The notes under the pieces are model-generated. The model made no database searches, had not been told where the DNA came from, and was given only the letters and a program-made list of their open reading frames with translations. This document shows, in pieces, positions 2,540 through 20,000 of a DNA stretch of 20,000 nucleotides. Source of the DNA: an uncultured virus (IMG/VR IMGVR_UViG_2648501751_000004) (Duplodnaviria > Heunggongvirae > Uroviricota > Caudoviricetes); IMG/VR virus record IMGVR_UViG_2648501751_000004. The stretch is one strand, 5' to 3'. Position numbers and translations under genes: made by a program. Position 1 is the stretch's first letter. Every line of letters begins with the position of its first letter.

Positions 2540-2989
2540 TTAATTCAAACCCAGGGGGTGGCCCATGAAATCGAGCAGGGTCTGCACGGCAGCACGCTCA
2601 TCATCCGGTGACAGGCCCAGCCAGGGGCGGGCCGGAATACCGCGCTCATCGTCACCGAACTGGTGGGTAGCTGCGTACACCCGATCGCTGCCGTACTCGA
2701 GCTGGTCCGCATCGGCCCGGTAGCGCTGAGTGTCTCGCAGATAGGTGTTCAATACCAGGATCTCATCCTTGCGGCGCTTCTTCCGTTTGCGGTAGGCCTC
2801 GCTCAGGGGCTCCCACGGTTCGCCTTCCGGGCTCTCCTGGGCGTCGAACCGGTCGCGGTGGCTCAGCAGCAGGTCTTCGCCGATGGCCTCGAACGCGGGG
2901 CGGGCGTTGCCGCCCCGGTCGGCCAGCGCCTGCAGGGCTCGCTCCAGCCGCTCGGTCTCGATGCGCCATTGCAGGTTCACCCCGGCCAT
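2540..2989 (-). CDS. Phage virion morphogenesis protein (Mu gpG-like)
   Basis: RFDAQESPEGEPWEPLS...YAATHQFG...IPARPWLGLS motifs. Follows F with a TGATG overlap. Confidence 0.9.
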   Translation of the reverse strand: MAGVNLQWRIETERLERALQALADRGGNARPAFEAIGEDLLLSHRDRFDAQESPEGEPWEPLSEAYRKRKKRRKDEILVLNTYLRDTQRYRADADQLEYGSDRVYAATHQFGDDERGIPARPWLGLSPDDERAAVQTLLDFMGHPLGLN

Positions 2990-4230
2990 CAGTCGTCCTC
3001 ACCCCGGCGGTACAGCCGCACGCCCTGGCGCAGGCGCTGCAGCTCGGCGTTGTCTTCTCCGGTGGCGGTGGTACCCGCCCAGCCATCGCGGCCCCACTCA
3101 AAGATGGCCACGGCCACGCCCTCATCACCTGGCAGCGCAAAACGGGCCAGGTAACGCCGGCGCAACACCGCCCGCTGGTCATCGCCGGGCAGCTCGGCCG
3201 CCACCCAGATCTCGTCCGGATCGCGCAGCGCCTCGGCCAGCACGCCCAGGTATCGGCGGTCGGTGCCGGCCGGCAACTGCCAGGCATCGTCAGCGGCCTG
3301 GAACAGCGCCTCGCTGATGGGCAGAGGCTCACCAACGGCGTCATCAAAGCGCACGGGTTCACCACCACGGCGGGCACCGAACACACCGAGGAATCGGTCC
3401 ACGGCGGCCGTGTCGCTCTCCGCCTGGTCCGGCAGATCAACGCCAAAGCGGCGGGGCCCGGGCATCGGGTCAGTCGCTGGCCGGGGCGGGAATGGCCCGC
3501 GTGTGCCGCGTAACGGGCCGTCCAGTTGCGGCGGGGTTACGCTGCGCACCCGATCGGCACCCGGGCGGTGCTCAAAGCCGGGGTCGATACCCTTCGGTAC
3601 ACGCACGGTGCGTGGGCTGGGGCCATTGGCCCCCACCACTTTCTCCTCCCACTCGATCTCCGGGCCCTGGTCCAGCACGGTGTAGCCCCGGCGCTCGGCC
3701 TCGGCCCGGCTGATCATGTACTTCTTGCAGGTGCAGCCCCAGCCATTCTTCGGGCTCCACACACCCCACCAGGGATCGTCCAGCGGCACCACCTTGCCAT
3801 CGTTGGCCAGGTGTTCCGGGCGGGGGTTCTCGCTGCCGCCGTGGCGGTAGAGCCCGAACGGCCGCAGGCGGCGCAGCTCCGGGTCCGCCATCTGCGCTTC
3901 ACGTCCGGCGTTGTAGCTCTGCATCAGGTTGGTTTCGTAGATCACCCGCGTGCGCCAGCCCCGGGAGCCGTTGTAGCTCCAGCCGTGGCGCTCCACGATC
4001 TGGTCGAAGTCCTTGCGGAAGTCCTGCAGGGTGGTGCCGTTCTCGATGGCCTTGAGCACCGAGCGCTGGAAGTCCTCCACGATGGCCATGCGATTGGCAC
4101 CAGCGACCATGAAGGCGTGATCGTTCTCGCGGCCGTAGATGTCGGTCCAGGCGCGGGTGGGCACGGCCACCTTCTCGCGCAGGTACTCGATCTGTTCCCG
4201 GAACGGCAGGTTGCCATAGCGCACGGCCAT
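2989..4230 (-). CDS. Mu gpF-like minor head protein with a C-terminal extension (PBECR2-like nuclease fold suspected)
   Basis: N-terminal Mu-F domain (AFMVAGA, RTRVIYETN, RPEH, PKNGWGCTC), a Pro-rich linker, then a C-terminal domain LRDPDEIW...RRRYLARF...GWAGTTA. Confidence 0.88.
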   Translation of the reverse strand: MAVRYGNLPFREQIEYLREKVAVPTRAWTDIYGRENDHAFMVAGANRMAIVEDFQRSVLKAIENGTTLQDFRKDFDQIVERHGWSYNGSRGWRTRVIYETNLMQSYNAGREAQMADPELRRLRPFGLYRHGGSENPRPEHLANDGKVVPLDDPWWGVWSPKNGWGCTCKKYMISRAEAERRGYTVLDQGPEIEWEEKVVGANGPSPRTVRVPKGIDPGFEHRPGADRVRSVTPPQLDGPLRGTRGPFPPRPATDPMPGPRRFGVDLPDQAESDTAAVDRFLGVFGARRGGEPVRFDDAVGEPLPISEALFQAADDAWQLPAGTDRRYLGVLAEALRDPDEIWVAAELPGDDQRAVLRRRYLARFALPGDEGVAVAIFEWGRDGWAGTTATGEDNAELQRLRQGVRLYRRGEDD

Positions 4231-10499: not shown

Positions 10500-10925
10500 C
10501 TAGTCGCCGAACAGCCCCGGTTGCAGGCGGGCGCGGATCATCTTGCGCTGGCGTGCCAGAATCGAATAAATCTGCACCTCGGTCAAGTGGTAGGCCTTGG
10601 CCAGCTCGCTGACGTTGGTGCCGTTGTGGCGCTCCCAGATCTCCCGGTCCCTCAAGGCCGTCTCCAGCTGCTCGCCCTTGGGCACATACAGGCTGCGGCC
10701 GCCGGCGAAACCGGCCAGCGCACGCACGGCCCGGAAGGCCAGCCGTCGGGCATCCGCCACCACGGCGCCATCCCGAACGAACGCGGCCTCCAGAATGCTC
10801 AGCATGTCGGTCAGCCCCTGGGGCCACTTGGCCAGGATCTCCGGATCGTCCATGTATTCCAGCATAGAATCGTCCAGCTCGTCCTCGAATAGGGCCAGGG
10901 TTTGCTCATGGTCGTGATTACCCAT
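10500..10925 (-). CDS. mor: Mor/C family transcription activator
   Basis: AGGRSLYVPKG...RDREIWERHNGTNVSELAKAYHLTEVQIYSIL is the Mor signature with a C-terminal HTH. Follows gemA. Confidence 0.92.
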   Translation of the reverse strand: MGNHDHEQTLALFEDELDDSMLEYMDDPEILAKWPQGLTDMLSILEAAFVRDGAVVADARRLAFRAVRALAGFAGGRSLYVPKGEQLETALRDREIWERHNGTNVSELAKAYHLTEVQIYSILARQRKMIRARLQPGLFGD

Positions 10926-11337
10926 TGATTCTTCTCCCGTGTCGCCGTGCGTCTACCAGTAGTCCCTGCATCAGGCGGAATAGCTGGTCATCGTCCAGCC
11001 AGTCCACCCGATCCACCTGGAACATGCGCTGGGCCATGCCGTCGGCGTAGGCCCAGGGCCGGCCCGCCTCGGCCAGCAGCGCTTCCACTTTATCCATCAC
11101 CGCCTTGCGGCTGGGCGGGGTGCGTGGTTTCTTGCGGCCGGCTTTCTTGCCGGGCTTCGGCACCCAGCCCAGGCGGCGGAATTCATCCAGCACCTGGCTG
11201 AGCTGCCTCGCGTTCAAATGCTTGGCGCTGCGAACGCCAGCCACCCGGGCCAGCAGCGCCCGATAGGTGTCGTCGTCCATGCCCAGTTCTTTGGCCGCGA
11301 TATGCACCTGCGCCAGGCCGCGTTGATTGATGCTCAT
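10918..11337 (-). CDS. gemA: GemA (Mu gp16/DUF1018) family protein
   Basis: LAQVHIAAKELGMDDDTYRALLARVAGVRSAKHL...WAYADGMAQRMFQVDRVDWL motif. Confidence 0.92.
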   Translation of the reverse strand: MSINQRGLAQVHIAAKELGMDDDTYRALLARVAGVRSAKHLNARQLSQVLDEFRRLGWVPKPGKKAGRKKPRTPPSRKAVMDKVEALLAEAGRPWAYADGMAQRMFQVDRVDWLDDDQLFRLMQGLLVDARRHGRRING

Positions 11338-12121: not shown

Positions 12122-12508
12122 TCAGCCTCTGATCGTGTAGTAAGTTCCATCGCCTACCCAAAAGAGCCCGTGCTTGTCTTTCAGGTCACAGACAAAGCTG
12201 ATGCCCTCCATGGTCGGCTCCAAATTGAGCGCCCTTAGAGGCCAGCCTTCGTCTTCCCCGGCGTCATCAATGCAAATCATTCCGTGACGCCTCAAGAGCC
12301 CAGTCATTCTTCCGCAGAACCTGGAGTCAACCTTCAGGTACTTGGCTAGATTTTCTGGGCTGGCATTGCCGGCGATATCTCGGGCGTAAAAGATGACCAT
12401 CAGCAAACGCACGCACAGGACACCTTCGTCCGGGCCGGTCCTAAAAGGCAGCAAAGCGGATAGCCTTGCCAGGTCAACATATGTAGGTTCTTTTAAAATC
12501 TTGATCAT
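12122..12508 (-). CDS. Hypothetical protein, lower GC than flanks
   Basis: 128 aa. ATGA overlap with the upstream gene, SD GGAGG, visibly more AT-rich codons. Confidence 0.7.
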   Translation of the reverse strand: MIKILKEPTYVDLARLSALLPFRTGPDEGVLCVRLLMVIFYARDIAGNASPENLAKYLKVDSRFCGRMTGLLRRHGMICIDDAGEDEGWPLRALNLEPTMEGISFVCDLKDKHGLFWVGDGTYYTIRG

Positions 12509-12753
12509 GCTTCCTCCACCGGCAGCCAGCCGGCTTTGAGCCGCCGGACACCCTCGATCAATTCCGGATCGACGTCTTGCTGCTCCATCCGCAATACCAA
12601 TTCGGTGCGAGCCTCAGAAAATCGAGTTGACATAAACTCCCAGTCCAGCCGGGCCTGCAACTCACCCGGGAAACGCAGGCCCCAGGGCTCAGCCTCCGCC
12701 GCCCTCAATTCGCCGCGATGTACGTCGACGTCATCAAATCCATACACCTTCAT
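12505..12753 (-). CDS. Small acidic hypothetical protein
   Basis: 82 aa, SD AGAGGA, coupled to the next gene. Confidence 0.72.
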   Translation of the reverse strand: MKVYGFDDVDVHRGELRAAEAEPWGLRFPGELQARLDWEFMSTRFSEARTELVLRMEQQDVDPELIEGVRRLKAGWLPVEEA

Positions 12754-12770
12754 GTCCGCTTCCTCTTTCC

Positions 12771-12950
12771 TTAGTGCCAGGCGTGAACGCTAATCACGAC
12801 GGCAACTACTGCCCCGAATACGACGCACCATGCGGCCTGCTTTCGAGCGAAGTACTTGCCAGCGTTGAATCCTCGGGCGTACGCCTTGTCCTCTGGCGTC
12901 TTTGCAAGGTGCACCCGCAGCTCGTCAGTCAGTCGTTCCATATCAGGCAT
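12771..12950 (-). CDS. Unannotated 59-aa protein with a C-terminal TM helix
   Basis: Below the ORF-track cutoff. MPDMERLTDELRVHLAKTPEDKAYARGFNAGKYFARKQAAWCVVFGAVVAVVISVHAWH*, SD GGAG 9 nt upstream. Fills the gap between the ribozyme and the next gene. Confidence 0.72.
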   Translation of the reverse strand: MPDMERLTDELRVHLAKTPEDKAYARGFNAGKYFARKQAAWCVVFGAVVAVVISVHAWH

Positions 12951-12971
12951 CGCTCGGCACTCCGGTTTGTT

Positions 12972-13029
12972 TGGCTGCTCATCAGTACCAGGCCACCACG
13001 CCTGGCAGACGCCCCGTAGGGCGTTTCGC
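12972..13029 (-). ncRNA. Hammerhead ribozyme, type II topology
   Basis: Minus strand: GC-GAAA-CGCCC-UACG-GGGCG-UC^UGCCAGGC-GUGGUG-GCCUGGUA-CUGAUGA-GC-AGCCA. All core nucleotides are present (CUGAUGA, GAAA, GUC). Stem III is 6 bp with a UNCG loop, stem I is 8 bp, stem II is 2 bp. Predicted cleavage between 13008 and 13007. Confidence 0.9.
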
Positions 13030-13272
13030 TTAGTGACTCTTGGTAGTGGCCACCGGGCGAAGCAGTTGCTCTTCCTTCACCTTGAACATCTCGTGGATGG
13101 CGTCGCGTATGGCTTCCACGCCCACCAGTGCCAGGTGCTGCACGGCGGTTTCGTCGCTGCCCAGGCCCCGGTACTTGTCCGCGAAGCTCAGTCCCACCTG
13201 GACACCCTGATCGGTCGCCTCGATGGTGATGGTGGCCTGGGTGCCCATTGGCTTTTTCGGTTGCTCGCTCAT
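13030..13272 (-). CDS. Hypothetical phage protein
   Basis: 80 aa, SD GGGAG, starts 1 nt after the upstream stop. Its TAA abuts the ribozyme. Confidence 0.75.
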   Translation of the reverse strand: MSEQPKKPMGTQATITIEATDQGVQVGLSFADKYRGLGSDETAVQHLALVGVEAIRDAIHEMFKVKEEQLLRPVATTKSH

Positions 13273-13273
13273 G

Positions 13274-13900
13274 TCACACTCCCGCGATATCTAGGCTGAT
13301 GGCTTTGTACTGGTCGGTTTCGCCCACGCGCTCATACAGGCGGATGTAGCTCTTGGAGCCGGTGACCTGCACCGCGTCGCTGATAGCGTCCATAGCCTTG
13401 AGCCAGCGCGCGTCGGAGATGTTCAGGCGGCGCAGGCCCAGCACCTGGCCGGTGCGGATGTTGCCGGCCTGGTCCACACGGAAGGCGTCCTGCACGATGG
13501 CGGCTACTTCAGGGCGGGCGTCGGCAGTCCATTCGGTCAGGCACTGGTCAATCAGGGCCTTGGCCGCCTGCAGGCGCTCATCAAAGCTGATGCTTTCCTG
13601 AATGGCGCGTTGGATCTTGTAGCGGCCGTCAAAGCTCACCAGCTGGACGTTGCCCTTGCGCCCACCCATCTGCACGCCGTACTCCTGGGCAGAGGTTTCC
13701 ACGAAGGCGTGAATCTCGCTGAAGGCGTCGCCTTTGAAGTCCCGCAGCTCTTCCCGCAGGGCCTTGGCACGATCCACCAGGCCGTAGACCAGCTCGTCCC
13801 GCAGCTTGTCCACTTCCTTGATTTGGTCCTCCGGGATCAGGCGGCCCCGGGCGTCGGTGCGGTAGCCCTCAAGGTTCGGGCTCTTGTTGGCATTGCTCAT
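13274..13900 (-). CDS. DUF3164 family protein (conserved Mu-like early gene)
   Basis: DARGRLIPEDQIKEVDKLRD...GGRKGNVQLVSFDG...FDERLQAAKALIDQC...SKSYIRLYER motifs. SD AAGGAG. Confidence 0.88.
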   Translation of the reverse strand: MSNANKSPNLEGYRTDARGRLIPEDQIKEVDKLRDELVYGLVDRAKALREELRDFKGDAFSEIHAFVETSAQEYGVQMGGRKGNVQLVSFDGRYKIQRAIQESISFDERLQAAKALIDQCLTEWTADARPEVAAIVQDAFRVDQAGNIRTGQVLGLRRLNISDARWLKAMDAISDAVQVTGSKSYIRLYERVGETDQYKAISLDIAGV

Positions 13901-14597: not shown

Positions 14598-14976
14598 GGT
14601 TCTTGCCTCGCTCGGGGCCGGTGGCCGCCGCGTTGGGGTTGTTGGTGCAGCCCTGGCAGGTGCGCCAGATACGCATGGCCATCGGGTTGTGGGTGGGGGC
14701 TGGCCGCTCGCGGTAGGCCCGGCATTGCTCCGTGGTGATCATCTTTCCCTGGGCCGGGCAGTGGATGCCGTCCAGGGCTTCGAGCACCCGGCGCTCCATG
14801 CGGTCAGTGCTGGGGCTGGAGTAGTTATTGGCCAGCAGCAGCGACACGGCAGTGCGCGAGATACCGATGCGCTCGGCGGTCCGGGTGCGGTTGCTGGCCC
14901 GGACTTCAGCGGCCAGCAGCTCCACCCAGCGCGGGGGCTCCTCGCCCCAGGCGGAGATATCGACGGTGCGTTTCAT
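14590..14976 (-). CDS. XRE/lambda-repressor-like HTH protein with four C-terminal cysteines
   Basis: RTRTAERIGISRTAVSLLLANNY HTH, then CP...C...CQGC. SD GGAGGT and an ATGA overlap. Confidence 0.78.
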   Translation of the reverse strand: MKRTVDISAWGEEPPRWVELLAAEVRASNRTRTAERIGISRTAVSLLLANNYSSPSTDRMERRVLEALDGIHCPAQGKMITTEQCRAYRERPAPTHNPMAMRIWRTCQGCTNNPNAAATGPERGKNHV

Positions 14977-15608
14977 GCGTCACCTCCGCCGTCGCGGCCG
15001 TGGCGGGTGTACACCACCTCGCCGGTGTTGGGGTCGAACACCTGTTTCAGGCGCTGGATCATCGGTGCGCGGGGCCCAGTCCAGCGGCTGGTAATCAGGC
15101 GGTACCGGGCGAACCGCCCGGGGCGGCCTGCGCGCACGGTTTGCAGGTACCCGGCGCCGGCCAGCATCACGCAGTATTCGTTGGCGGTTTTCTCGGCCAC
15201 CGGGAAGTCCGGAGTGCTGGCCGCTCGGGCCAGATCCTGCGAGGTGAACTCGCCGATGATCTTGATGGTGCGCCACATCTGCTCGCGGCCTCGGCCCTGG
15301 GTGACTTCGGTGCCGTCCTTGCGAACCCGGGGGGCGTCCAGCCCGCAGTCTTTCACCAGCTCGTACTGCACCGATGGCCCCGGCGCGCCTTCGATGGGGC
15401 GCAGGTAGCCGGCGGCCACCAGGCCTGCCATGTAATCGCGCACTCGACCTTTCGGGGCCCACTCGGCACCCAGCATCCACACGTCGCGCACGGTGATCGG
15501 CTCGCCGCCCTTGTGCAGCTTGCGCATGATTTCCCACATCGACTGGCGGTCGCCCTTTGGCCCCTGGGCTTCCAGGTGCACGGGTTTGCGGGTGGTGGTC
15601 TTCGCCAT
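14973..15608 (-). CDS. Tandem winged-helix-like protein downstream of the B ATPase
   Basis: ATG 15608 with SD GGAGG. Two internal repeats, each with RxxMW...Y..L..AGYL...Y.L...G..AP. Confidence 0.8.
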   Translation of the reverse strand: MAKTTTRKPVHLEAQGPKGDRQSMWEIMRKLHKGGEPITVRDVWMLGAEWAPKGRVRDYMAGLVAAGYLRPIEGAPGPSVQYELVKDCGLDAPRVRKDGTEVTQGRGREQMWRTIKIIGEFTSQDLARAASTPDFPVAEKTANEYCVMLAGAGYLQTVRAGRPGRFARYRLITSRWTGPRAPMIQRLKQVFDPNTGEVVYTRHGRDGGGDA

Positions 15609-15610
15609 GA

Positions 15611-16329
15611 TCAACCCCTCCGCGCCGGCGGCTGACCGGTATGGATGGTGCGTTCACCCCAGGTGTCCAGGTCCACCCGCTCCCAGCCGTTGGCCAGTGC
15701 CTCGCTGTGGATCCGGTACAGGTTGACGGCCACCCGGCGCAGGCAGCCACGCACCCGGTCGTTCACGGCCTGCAGCAGATCGTCGTCCATGTCCACATCC
15801 GGGTAGCTGCGGCTGGCCAGCTCGCGCACGTCGTTCAGGCTGGCCTTCTGGGCAGGCACCCATTCCAGTACCCGGTTGTGCAGGCGCTCCAGGCGTGCCA
15901 TGGAGGTAGGCACACGCTCCTCGCCGATCAGGATCAGGGTGCCCTGGCTGGCGTTGTAGATGTCGGTCAACACATTGGCGGCCGCCTTGTCGATCACGTA
16001 CTGGACGTCGTCGACAATCAGCGGGCGAGCGGACCGGCTGAGCTGCTCGGCCACCTGGTCGACCATCTCGCTGAGGGTTTTCATGGGGATGATGCCCATC
16101 TCCCGCAGGATGGCGACCAGGAAAGCCTTTTTCGTCCAGCTCTCCCGGCACTCCACGTAGTAGGCGCGGTGCAGGTTGGCGGCGTAGGCGGCCGCCAGGG
16201 ATTTGCCGTAGCCGCTCGGGCCGTACATCACCACCAGGCCGGGCAGCTCGGGGGCCGGTTGGCCGCGCTCTCCACGGCGTGGGCGAGCAGGCCGACGTTG
16301 GTCAGTGGTACAATGGTGTTGACGCTCAT
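15611..16329 (-). pseudogene. MuB-like AAA+ transposition ATPase, frameshifted near codon 27
   Basis: ATG 16329 with SD CAGGAG gives MSVNTIVPLTNVGLLAHAVESAANRP. One extra C in the C5 run (16254-16250) continues the frame as PELPGLVVMYGPSGYGKS (Walker A)...LIVDD (Walker B), 239 aa in total. As given, the frame stops after 33 aa. Confidence 0.85.
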
Positions 16330-16371: not shown

Positions 16372-18468
16372 TTACATGGCCTTCCGAGTGCCGGCGGGCG
16401 CATTCCCGCTGGCACTCATTTCCATCACGCGCTGGATAGCGCGGAATCCGGTTGTTTTCGGGTAGCTCTCCCACCACTTCCGTTCAGCCTCGGCCAGCGT
16501 CTCGCCGGCGCTCTGGCGTTTATCCAGGGCGTGCCACAGGTGGTACCGCTGGGTGGGGTCTTCGGGTATCTGGAAGGTTTCGGCCTTCGGTGCCGCCAGT
16601 TCGCGGGCCTTGGCGCGGCCGGCTTCCAGCAGCTTTTCGTTGTCGTCATTGGCAGACAGGGGCTCGATCACGCGGATCTCCACGTCCTGGCCGGTGATGG
16701 TTTTGGCCTTGGTGCCCAGGCGGTTGAGCTGGCCTTTCACACGCTTGTCAGCGGCGCGCTGGATCATGCTCTGAGGCATTGCCGGGGTGGCGTTGCCGTT
16801 CAGTTCGGCCTCGCCCAGCAGCTCGCCCTCCAGGGTGAACACGCCCACGCGGGTCTCGTCGCGGTAATCCCAGGCCACCTTGACCTCTTCGCCGTGGAAG
16901 TCCCGCAGCAGGTCCAGGAAGTAAATGCCGCCGTTGATGCGCACTTCGCCCCGGTGCGTCTTGCGCACTTCCTGCGGCCGGGTGAGTGAGGCCACCAGGT
17001 CGGCCTCGGCGCTCACCGGCTCCCAGCCTTCCGCCTCGGCGCTGGCCAGCGCTTCCATGGGGCTCTGGTGGCGCATCCGGCCGGTCTCCAGATCGCGGAT
17101 CTTGGGCAGCGACGAGTGCGGGGTGTGGTTGTAGCGCTCGACGGCGTCGCACAGGCCGTCGTAAAACTCCTGAAAGCTCGGTATGTGCAGCGGCTTCAGC
17201 CCGTTTTTGATGGCCTGGCGGGAGAGCTTGTGCACCCGGGTGGCGGCCTCTTTGTCCATGTCCGGGCCGATGTAGCTGTCCAGGGTTTTGGCGTAGCGGA
17301 TCAGGATGGACTGGTGCGGCCGTTCGATGATGCCCCGGCCCTGGGAGTTGTAGGGCAGCGCGTTGGTGAAGGTGCCGCCCAGGCGGTCGACGACTTCCCG
17401 CACCGGGTCGTTGTCAAAGCCGGCGCCATTATCGGAATAGAACACGGCGAACATGCCGTTGCGGGTGATGCCGTCCCGCAGGGCGTCCAGGGTGGCCAGG
17501 ATGGACTCGGCCAGGTTGACGGCAACACCGACAATGCGCTTGGTGCCCCAGTCGATCACCATGGTGATCTCCGGCTTGAAGGCCTGGCCGGTGATCGGGT
17601 TGATCACCTCGCTCTTGAAGGTGTGACCATCGCCCACCCACACATCGTTTGGCCACAAGTGATCGAAGGTGCGGCGCTTGAAAGGTTGAACCGCCTTCAG
17701 GTCACGCGGCCCCATGCGGCCACGCTCCCGGGCCTCCGGGCTCATCTTGCGCAATTGCCGGTACACCTGGTCGATGGATGGGTGCGGACCAGGTGAGCGC
17801 TCCACAAACATCTGGTAGGCCGCCGCTACCGGGGGCTTCTGGGGGCGCTGATAGAACTTGAGGAACCGGGGCAGCCACTCCGGTACGGTCATGTCAGCCT
17901 TGCGCCGCTTCGGGGCCAGGGCCCGCTCGCCGTGCTCCCGGAAGTCGGAGAGCCAGCGCTTGAGGGTGCGTTCGGACAGGTTGCGCGTGGCGGTCTTGCG
18001 ATCATTCGCCAGCACCGCCCGCTCGGCCAGATACGGCGTTAGATCTCCCAGGGCCGCCTTGGCGACTAACGTTTGAATGGCCTTCTGCTGGGTGGTCAGG
18101 GTGCACAGCCGCTCGATCTCCCGCACGAGCGCCACCCGGGCGCCCATCACCTGCAGCTGGGTCTCGTTCAACTGCTCGTAGCTTTCCGGTTTGCGGGCCG
18201 GGGTCGGTGTGGCGGTGCTGGTCTGTACCGGATGGTCCGGCTCGGCGCTGTCCACCAGGCGTTCCAGCAGGGCGTCCCGGGTTTCCTGGGGGAGGCTGGC
18301 AAAGGCGTATTCGCGGCCACCGCCTTTGCCCTTGCGCTTTTTGAAGTCCCAGCCTTCCGCCTTGGCCCGGCGAATAAGCGCGCTCACGCTGGTGGGTACA
18401 CCTGGCATTCCTGCCAGCTCAGCCGCCGTGAAATAAGACTGGACCATGGGAGACGTGCGGCAGTTCAT
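16372..18468 (-). CDS. MuA-like DDE transposase
   Basis: N-terminal Mu DNA-binding domain (FTAAELAGMPGVP...GKGGGREY..ASLP) and catalytic WVGDGH / YSDNGAGF / GIIER motifs, with a Mu-transposase C-terminal region. The start could alternatively be ATG 18447. Confidence 0.96.
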   Translation of the reverse strand: MNCRTSPMVQSYFTAAELAGMPGVPTSVSALIRRAKAEGWDFKKRKGKGGGREYAFASLPQETRDALLERLVDSAEPDHPVQTSTATPTPARKPESYEQLNETQLQVMGARVALVREIERLCTLTTQQKAIQTLVAKAALGDLTPYLAERAVLANDRKTATRNLSERTLKRWLSDFREHGERALAPKRRKADMTVPEWLPRFLKFYQRPQKPPVAAAYQMFVERSPGPHPSIDQVYRQLRKMSPEARERGRMGPRDLKAVQPFKRRTFDHLWPNDVWVGDGHTFKSEVINPITGQAFKPEITMVIDWGTKRIVGVAVNLAESILATLDALRDGITRNGMFAVFYSDNGAGFDNDPVREVVDRLGGTFTNALPYNSQGRGIIERPHQSILIRYAKTLDSYIGPDMDKEAATRVHKLSRQAIKNGLKPLHIPSFQEFYDGLCDAVERYNHTPHSSLPKIRDLETGRMRHQSPMEALASAEAEGWEPVSAEADLVASLTRPQEVRKTHRGEVRINGGIYFLDLLRDFHGEEVKVAWDYRDETRVGVFTLEGELLGEAELNGNATPAMPQSMIQRAADKRVKGQLNRLGTKAKTITGQDVEIRVIEPLSANDDNEKLLEAGRAKARELAAPKAETFQIPEDPTQRYHLWHALDKRQSAGETLAEAERKWWESYPKTTGFRAIQRVMEMSASGNAPAGTRKAM

Positions 18469-19664: not shown

Positions 19665-20000
19665 TTATGCGCTCCGCGCCAGTTGACAGTGCGCGATAGC
19701 GTTAGATTTTGTATGCTTAGTGCATACCTGCTCCTTGCGTTCTCCCACATTCGGACGTTCGCGGAGCGGCGCGCCGTGCGGATGCCAGCGGTCGGGCCAG
19801 ATGTCCTGGGGAGCCAGTTCCAGCTTCCGGGCAATGGCCCGCTCAACACGCGGGTACCGCACGCGCTTGACGTTATTGACAGACTGCCTGGAAACGCCCA
19901 GATCCTGGGCAACCTTGGCAAGGGACGATCCACGCATACGGAGCTGGAATTTCACCCACTCCCACAGCAGTTCTGGATCGGTCGGAATCTTGGTTTTCAT
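19665..20000 (-). CDS. ner: Ner/Nlp-like transcriptional regulator
   Basis: WVKFQLRMRGSSLAKVAQDLGVSRQSV...YPRVERAIARKLELAPQDIWPDRW is the Ner signature. First gene of the early operon. Confidence 0.88.
   Translation of the reverse strand: MKTKIPTDPELLWEWVKFQLRMRGSSLAKVAQDLGVSRQSVNNVKRVRYPRVERAIARKLELAPQDIWPDRWHPHGAPLRERPNVGERKEQVCTKHTKSNAIAHCQLARSA

Follow-up and report, generated by a model that had tools for sequence, protein, structure and literature searches.

A short element on the minus strand of the DNA described here is most likely an active, and otherwise ordinary, type II hammerhead ribozyme in a Mu-like prophage's early transcript; that it cuts is expected from its homology to relatives that have been tested. 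The window, by which we mean the whole stretch of 20,000 nucleotides that was analysed, contains one such element. The type II hammerhead class, its pseudoknot, its occurrence in prophages and its link to Mu-like genes have all been published already, and the present copy is an ordinary member of the family. It is one more hammerhead in the family's commonest setting, and matters little as it stands. It does make a clean case for the question of what phage and bacterial hammerheads are for: a single ribozyme in the well-understood early operon of Mu, available in three near-identical prophages and one divergent copy, and tied to one small gene family in nine of nine loci. It stands where conserved early genes give way to accessory genes that vary, and its cleavage may change the balance between the transposition genes and the GemA/Mor block.

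Sequence and architecture of the ribozyme

From position 13029 to position 12972, the minus strand reads GC GAAA CGCCC UACG GGGCG UC/U GCCAGGC GUGGUG GCCUGGUA CUGAUGA GC A GCCA, the slash marking the predicted site of cleavage. Core positions are numbered by the usual hammerhead convention, and the positions so assigned agree with the consensus line of RF02276. The parts of the element, all on the minus strand, are as follows.

12969..13031, minus: type II hammerhead ribozyme, full extent of the Rfam match (RF02276, 76 bits; 80.1 bits at 12969-13030 with our own covariance model)
13032-13030, minus: TAA stop codon of the 80-aa ORF, read from the sequence
13028..13029, minus: stem II, 5' strand GC, starting at the first base after the TAA; 2 bp, G13029-C12977 and C13028-G12978
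13025..13027, minus: core G12 A13 A14, read from the sequence; columns invariant in the alignment of relatives
13009..13024, minus: stem III hairpin, 13024-13019 with 13014-13009; 6 bp, namely A15.1-U16.1 and five G-C pairs; UACG loop at 13018-13015
A13024-U13009, minus: A15.1-U16.1 pair, read from the sequence
13010-13008, minus: GUC triplet, read from the sequence
13007..13008, minus: predicted cleavage site between C17 (13008) and U1.1 (13007), placed by the hammerhead consensus
12986..13007, minus: stem I hairpin, 13007-13000 with 12993-12986; 8 bp including one G-U; loop I GUGGUG at 12999-12994
12979..12985, minus: core CUGAUGA (C3-A9), invariant in the alignment of relatives except at position 7
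12977..12978, minus: stem II, 3' strand GC, pairing with the 5' strand at 13028..13029
12972..12975, minus: 3' tail GCCA, forming a pseudoknot with loop I UGGU at 12998-12995

Loops cap stems I and III, and stem II is open and joins the two ends of the molecule, which is the permutation that characterizes type II. The residue at the cut site, H17, may be anything other than G, and is here C13008. The pseudoknot comprises the pairs U12998-A12972, G12997-C12973, G12996-C12974 and U12995-G12975. The initial annotation had read the same letters, and when these are indexed independently they yield each of the parts that it described: an intact catalytic core with its GUC triplet, a stem III capped by cUACGg, a stem I of 8 bp and a stem II of 2 bp, a pseudoknot between loop I UGGU and the tail GCCA (4 bp are readable, and 93% of its cells are paired among 50 distinct relatives), and a first base, 13029, that directly follows the TAA of the 80-aa gene at 13032-13030.

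Family membership and tests against chance

The Rfam model Hammerhead_II (RF02276) matches the minus strand from 13031 to 12969 with 76 bits, where the gathering score is 37, and an E-value of 1.3e-14; the match runs from position 1 to position 66 of the 66 in the model and so bears out, over the full length of the family model, the class named in the initial annotation. No further match to any Rfam family was found in the 20-kb window, either at the gathering score or at E <= 1, and a search of 14 control genomes with the same model returned a match in none of them. The bare core pattern is present a single time in the window, where 0.01 occurrences are expected, and was matched in 3 of 200 shuffles. 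ViennaRNA predicts stems III and I for a 71-nt piece at -27.8 kcal/mol (z = -2.52), a value equalled in none of 200 shuffles, and recovers the same two stems in a 211-nt context, in the minimum free energy and centroid structures alike. Judged by these signatures, the element is a genuine and complete type II hammerhead ribozyme.

Setting in the early operon

Every real gene of the window lies on the minus strand, the strand of the ribozyme. Those that frame the ribozyme, listed in the order of transcription, are these.

19665-20000, minus: Ner-like protein (HTH_35)
16372..18468, minus: Mu-type transposase, MuA-like (HTH_Tnp_Mu_1 and Mu-transpos_C)
15611..16234, minus: MuB-like AAA+ protein (AAA_22, E 3.9e-14)
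13274..13900, minus: DUF3164 gene, phrog_846 (Pfam E 1.4e-85; PHROG E 2.5e-91)
13030..13272, minus: upstream 80-aa ORF, without a Pfam, PHROG or Atlas family; its TAA touches the ribozyme
12771..12950, minus: downstream 59-aa ORF with a hydrophobic C-terminus, without a Pfam or PHROG family; GGAG at 12963-12960, 9 nt ahead of the ATG
10918..11337, minus: GemA (PF06252, E 5.9e-29)
10500..10925, minus: Mor late-transcription activator (PF08765, E 1.2e-24; phrog_532)

The late genes in the window encode Gp27, the large terminase, Portal_Mu, Mu F, a virion morphogenesis protein, the Mu-like protease I and gpT. By its gene content the window is part of a Mu-like transposable prophage, and the ribozyme belongs to its early operon. 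The initial annotation had placed it there too, and the gene order agrees: it follows the MuA-like, MuB-like and DUF3164 genes on the same strand, and precedes the small ORFs, GemA and Mor. Two of these genes have features of their own. The MuB-like ORF, whose start or frame may be misplaced, is short as called, with 207 aa and an AAA_22 domain that begins at residue 2, and the overlapping, family-less ORFs 14973-15614 and 14980-15750 come next. Among the late genes, the Mu F-like head protein (2989-4230, minus strand) carries a C-terminal PBECR2 domain, a nuclease of the Barnase/EndoU/colicin-like kind (E 6.6e-27).

The 80-aa ORF, whose TAA is at 13032-13030, and the 59-aa ORF, whose ATG is at 12950, are separated by 79 nt, which the ribozyme fills. 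Pfam and PHROG offer no family for either of these ORFs, or for the next two. A scan of 12300-13700 found no promoter-like site, and the sole terminator-like site that it found is on the minus strand, at 12653-12639, some 315 nt 3' of the ribozyme. Two plus-strand ORFs cross the element, 12774-13019 and 12856-13299, and we reject both as coding: GC at their three codon positions is flat (0.66/0.48/0.67 and 0.68/0.51/0.64, respectively), compared with 0.65/0.38/0.80 in the 80-aa ORF on the minus strand. Taken together, the lack of a promoter-like site, the distance to the terminator and the flat GC of the antisense frames indicate that the element is intercistronic RNA of the early operon. Third-position GC drops across the ribozyme, from 0.80-0.84 in the upstream genes (13030-13900) to 0.65-0.67 in the two downstream ORFs (12505-12950), as a separate acquisition of the downstream ORFs would predict.

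Further copies in the genome

The genome from which the window comes (4.45 Mb, in two contigs) has four Hammerhead_II matches, three with 76 bits and one with 73.9 bits. The three belong to near-identical prophages, in which the 20-kb window recurs at 98% and 100% identity (G000 C1:3389823-3409725, and C2:1029445-1043153 plus C2:1-6625); the copy with 100% identity spans the ends of contig 2. Three occurrences of the window at 98-100% identity suggest a transposable phage that was active recently.

The fourth match (L004) lies in a divergent Mu-like prophage at 188-204 kb of contig 1. Where matches between the genes of the two prophages can be detected, they are 65-72% identical; the ribozymes, in comparison, are 90% identical over 69 nt. 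Three pairs of stem I are altered in the divergent copy, and pairing is kept in all three (A-U to G-C, G-U to A-U and C-G to U-G). This comparison is independent of the choice of relatives, and shows that the structure of the RNA is under selection. The ORF that precedes the divergent ribozyme is a homologue of the 80-aa ORF (45% identity, E 8e-16), and the ORF that follows is unrelated to the 59-aa ORF.

Relatives and covariation

Hammerhead_II matches above the cut-off were found in 3 of 61 related genomes, the present one counted, and a scan of viral contigs with the core pattern returned at least 134 stretches. When 601 nt around the element were compared by blastn with 50,697 phage records, 109 records matched, and all of the matches listed are limited to the ~60 nt of the ribozyme itself. 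The records include phages of Ralstonia (96 records), Streptomyces, Pseudomonas and Microcystis, among others. In KY939598.1 (5954-6017), OP380511.1 (7490-7552) and KT381865.1 (28363-28424) the match falls under a feature named 'hypothetical protein' or 'HU-beta', and these hammerheads are probably unannotated, or overlapped by a gene call that is too long.

Covariation was assessed in an alignment of 51 type II hammerheads, 50 of them distinct. Relatives were selected by the core pattern together with paired stems I and III, and the pairing of those two helices is partly by construction; because selection demanded the core and the two stems, the stem counts are biased toward the structure. 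The pseudoknot played no part in the selection, and only the pseudoknot count and the comparison with the divergent prophage are free of this bias. With that proviso, 97.3% of cells are paired in the 50 distinct relatives, compared with 71.7% in shuffles (none of 500 shuffles reached as high), and 16 of 19 pairs show two-sided changes. Stem I contributes all eight of its pairs and stem III four of the five counted. Stem II hardly varies, being G-C/C-G in 49-50 of the 50. In the pseudoknot, 93% of cells are paired, compared with 31-49% when the partner is slid along, and three of the four pairs are altered on both sides. The homologues thus display the covariation in the stems whose absence the initial annotation had named as evidence against a ribozyme. 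Two elements of one locus (L144:4026-4099 and L144:4453-4522) have CUGACGA, with C at the variable position 7 of the core, and still attain 65-69 bits on the Rfam model.

Association with the 80-aa gene and with DUF3164

The 80-aa protein belongs to no Pfam, PHROG or Atlas family; its best Atlas feature score is 0.88, where 0.9 is the level of a lead, and its Atlas matches are all hypothetical viral proteins. By Pfam it is not related to HU. A profile built from three aligned homologues retrieved nine viral loci that encode a relative (L160 and L162-L169). All nine have the ribozyme on the same strand, with a gap of 0 between stop codon and ribozyme in eight and of -1 in one, and in all nine a C-terminal His codon precedes the stop. 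The nine represent six distinct lineages: one is the present phage, one is the divergent prophage of the same genome, and four loci are identical. A DUF3164 gene is found upstream in the eight that have enough flanking sequence, and in the divergent prophage as sequenced in the genome (L004). At least four kinds of ORF follow the ribozyme: the 59-aa ORF in the present phage, a Cys-rich ORF of 60 aa (L165, L168/L004 and L169), one of 105 aa (the L162 group) and another (L167). In the present lineage, then, the ribozyme and the 80-aa gene go together, at the point where conserved early genes give way to small ORFs that vary.

The association does not extend to DUF3164 at large. Among 18 loci found by way of DUF3164, five have a hammerhead within 2.5 kb (a scan with the core expression alone understates hammerhead counts, and missed L149 and L150), and only one, the present phage, has the 80-aa gene. 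We reject the proposition that the ribozyme is a general trait of Mu-like phages that bear DUF3164. With 5 of 18 DUF3164 loci and 3 of 61 related genomes having one, Mu-like phages in general can do without the ribozyme.

This distribution invites a reading in which the ribozyme is real and is kept mainly for its place at the constant end of a gene module: its nearly invariant ~60 nt of DNA would serve as a patch of homology for the exchange of accessory genes, and cleavage would be secondary. We regard this as unlikely. It accords with the blastn result, in which, among the matches listed, nothing of the 601-nt query except the ribozyme matches the 109 phage records of unrelated hosts; with the constancy of what stands upstream (the stop codon of the 80-aa gene in nine of nine loci, DUF3164 in eight and in the divergent prophage) and the four or more kinds of ORF that stand downstream; and with the fall in third-position GC from 0.80-0.84 to 0.65-0.67. 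In the wider family, too, 47 pairs of hammerheads have homologous ORFs upstream, and only two of these pairs have the downstream ORF in common as well. The control, however, shows no contrast: of 18 pairs that could be scored on two sides, six share what lies upstream of the upstream ORF, at a junction that has no ribozyme, and three share what lies downstream of the ribozyme. Mosaicism extends over the entire early region, and the pairs come mostly from a single family (HU) and are not independent. Ribozyme junctions as special breakpoints of mosaicism are, on this control (6 of 18 versus 3 of 18), not supported in general. The strict core and the compensatory changes in stems and pseudoknot, moreover, speak for selection on the RNA, and not on identity of the DNA. 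A combined form of the idea, in which the ribozyme forms a fixed cap at the 3' end of a conserved 'DUF3164 ... 80-aa gene' block and is under selection in two capacities, as a self-cutting RNA and as a joint for recombination, strikes us as similarly improbable.

Spacing and neighbours in the family

We return to the reading that we prefer, an ordinary ribozyme in an early operon, and to its layout, which is the usual one in this family. Among the 51 relatives, the stop codon of the preceding ORF either adjoins stem II with a gap of 0 or shares one base with it (TAG, the G lying in stem II) in 25, and lies within 3 nt of it in 35; from stem II to the next start codon the median is 17 nt. A covariance model made from the alignment gave a larger set, with 126 matches in 80 viral loci, of which 116 are unique, 109 are in register and 103 have an upstream ORF. 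In this set the gap between stop and ribozyme is no more than 0 in 25 of the 103, no more than 3 in 50 and no more than 10 in 76, with a median of 20 nt to the next start. A ribozyme that begins right after a stop codon is thus common, and not special to this phage. The proteins encoded around the relatives are those of Mu-like early regions. Pfam identifies the upstream ORFs of the 51 as HU (10), Gam (2), DUF3164 (2), Mor (2), DUF2786/DUF7168 (1) and DUF6874 (1), with no family for 33; the 37 downstream ORFs that were scanned include five of GemA and two of DUF2786, the other 14 being duplicates of a neighbouring ribozyme's upstream ORF, or truncated or short.

A ribosome that terminates at an abutting stop codon would have to lie over stem II and some of the core, and could thereby lower cleavage in vivo; the mRNA channel of the ribosome reaches beyond the A site. 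Carried further, this becomes a gating mechanism, in which a ribosome terminating on the 80-aa ORF sequesters the 5' strand of stem II and G12-A14, and the RNA is cut only when the ORF is poorly translated. Abutment or overlap of the stop is in keeping with it (25 of 51 relatives, 25 of 103 in the model-based set and nine of nine in the 80-aa family), and yet tight packing of phage genes explains abutment equally well, the gaps spread smoothly from -1 to ~10 nt, and a ribosome probably occupies a stop codon so briefly that the effect may be small. We consider such gating quite improbable. Among the papers listed by a literature search, which is no proof of absence from print, none deals by title or abstract with ribozymes that abut stop codons.

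That the element is an inactive relic, or two GC-rich hairpins (a terminator, or a site for a protein) that mimic a hammerhead by chance, is very improbable: some hammerhead-like RNAs are indeed inactive, according to the legend of Figure S7 of Perreault 2011 (PMC3088659), but here the E-value is 1.3e-14 with a complete core, the ribozyme is 90% conserved between prophages whose genes stand at 65-72%, compensatory changes keep the stems and the pseudoknot, neither hairpin is followed by a run of T and the terminator scan is empty at the site, and the antisense ORFs over the element have flat codon-position GC.

Predicted processing of the early transcript

If the element behaves as its tested relatives do, the following course of events can be proposed. 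Once transcribed, stems I and III would fold, and the 2-bp stem II would close the three-way junction; the pseudoknot between loop I and the 3' tail would keep stems I and II alongside each other. C13008 would then attack its own phosphate with its 2'-OH, and the RNA would break between 13008 and 13007. The upstream product would comprise the Ner-like, MuA, MuB-like, DUF3164 and 80-aa genes, and would end 22 nt past the last stop codon, in the UACG-capped hairpin of stem III with a 2',3'-cyclic phosphate. The downstream product would run from the 59-aa ORF through other small ORFs to GemA and Mor; it would start with a 5'-OH directly on the 8-bp hairpin of stem I, leaving the GGAG and the ATG free at 14-26 nt past stem II. 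The hairpins at the two predicted ends can be read from the sequence. Cleavage of the early mRNA is itself deduced from homology to tested relatives. The two halves of the operon might in this way become separate, hairpin-capped mRNAs, uncoupled in stability and in translation, as the published literature likewise infers for the class.

The cutting of polycistronic mRNA that we propose is the role inferred for these ribozymes in Perreault 2011 (PMC3088659), which proposes the processing of long phage transcripts, and in a 2019 review; section 13 of that review (Weinberg, Weinberg & Hammann 2019) describes the role of bacterial hammerheads as still elusive.

Comparison with known ribozymes

Self-cleavage ahead of a gene has been put to use in engineered insulators of the RiboJ type, placed between cistrons, in which it leaves a defined 5' end, led by a hairpin, ahead of the ribosome-binding site. 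The likeness is one of mechanism only: RiboJ parts are synthetic, and derive from a different type of hammerhead.

The natural precedents are closer. The type II hammerheads described in Perreault 2011 (PMC3088659) have a pseudoknot between loop I and the 3' tail, proven there by mutation, and cleave fast; they flank prophage genes, and polycistronic constructs of ~2 kb were cleaved in vitro and in Escherichia coli. The present element shares their topology, the very short, open stem II and the core of the RF02276 family, a pseudoknot of 4 bp or longer just past stem II, and an intergenic setting in a prophage. We see no difference in structure from the hammerheads as that paper describes them; the present copy is single, where those are clustered, and is known from sequence. 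The same paper describes clusters of hammerheads that flank single prophage genes in Agrobacterium tumefaciens, Azorhizobium caulinodans and Clostridium scindens. There, as here, a ribozyme fills an intercistronic gap of a phage operon, but the clusters, as reported, have two or three ribozymes per ~2 kb, and the 20-kb window has a single one.

Three type II hammerheads of Desulfovibrio vulgaris cleave in vivo and during transcription in vitro, as described in the cyPhyRNA-seq study of Olzog et al. 2021 (PMC8782182). Like the present ribozyme they lie near phage-like genes, and near genes for DNA-binding proteins, and their minimal 3' fragment of 39 nt corresponds to 13007-12969 here. The host and the flanking genes, as given in that study, are different, and cleavage, which was shown there, is predicted here. 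An enrichment of hammerhead and twister ribozymes near the genes of Mu-like phages is mentioned in PMC10085705, citing Weinberg et al. 2015 and Roth et al. 2014; consistent with the association as mentioned there, the present ribozyme is in a Mu-like early region, and its relatives lie beside HU, Gam, DUF3164, GemA and Mor.

Arrays of hammerheads occur also among the relatives collected here. One viral contig of 5823 nt (L084) has 16 type II hammerheads on one strand within 5.8 kb, about one for each gap between small ORFs. Another locus (L150:3961-4553) has three within 600 nt, between an HU gene and ORFs of 48 and 78 aa. The three have identical stems I and III, and look like a recent duplication of units that each consist of a ribozyme and an ORF.
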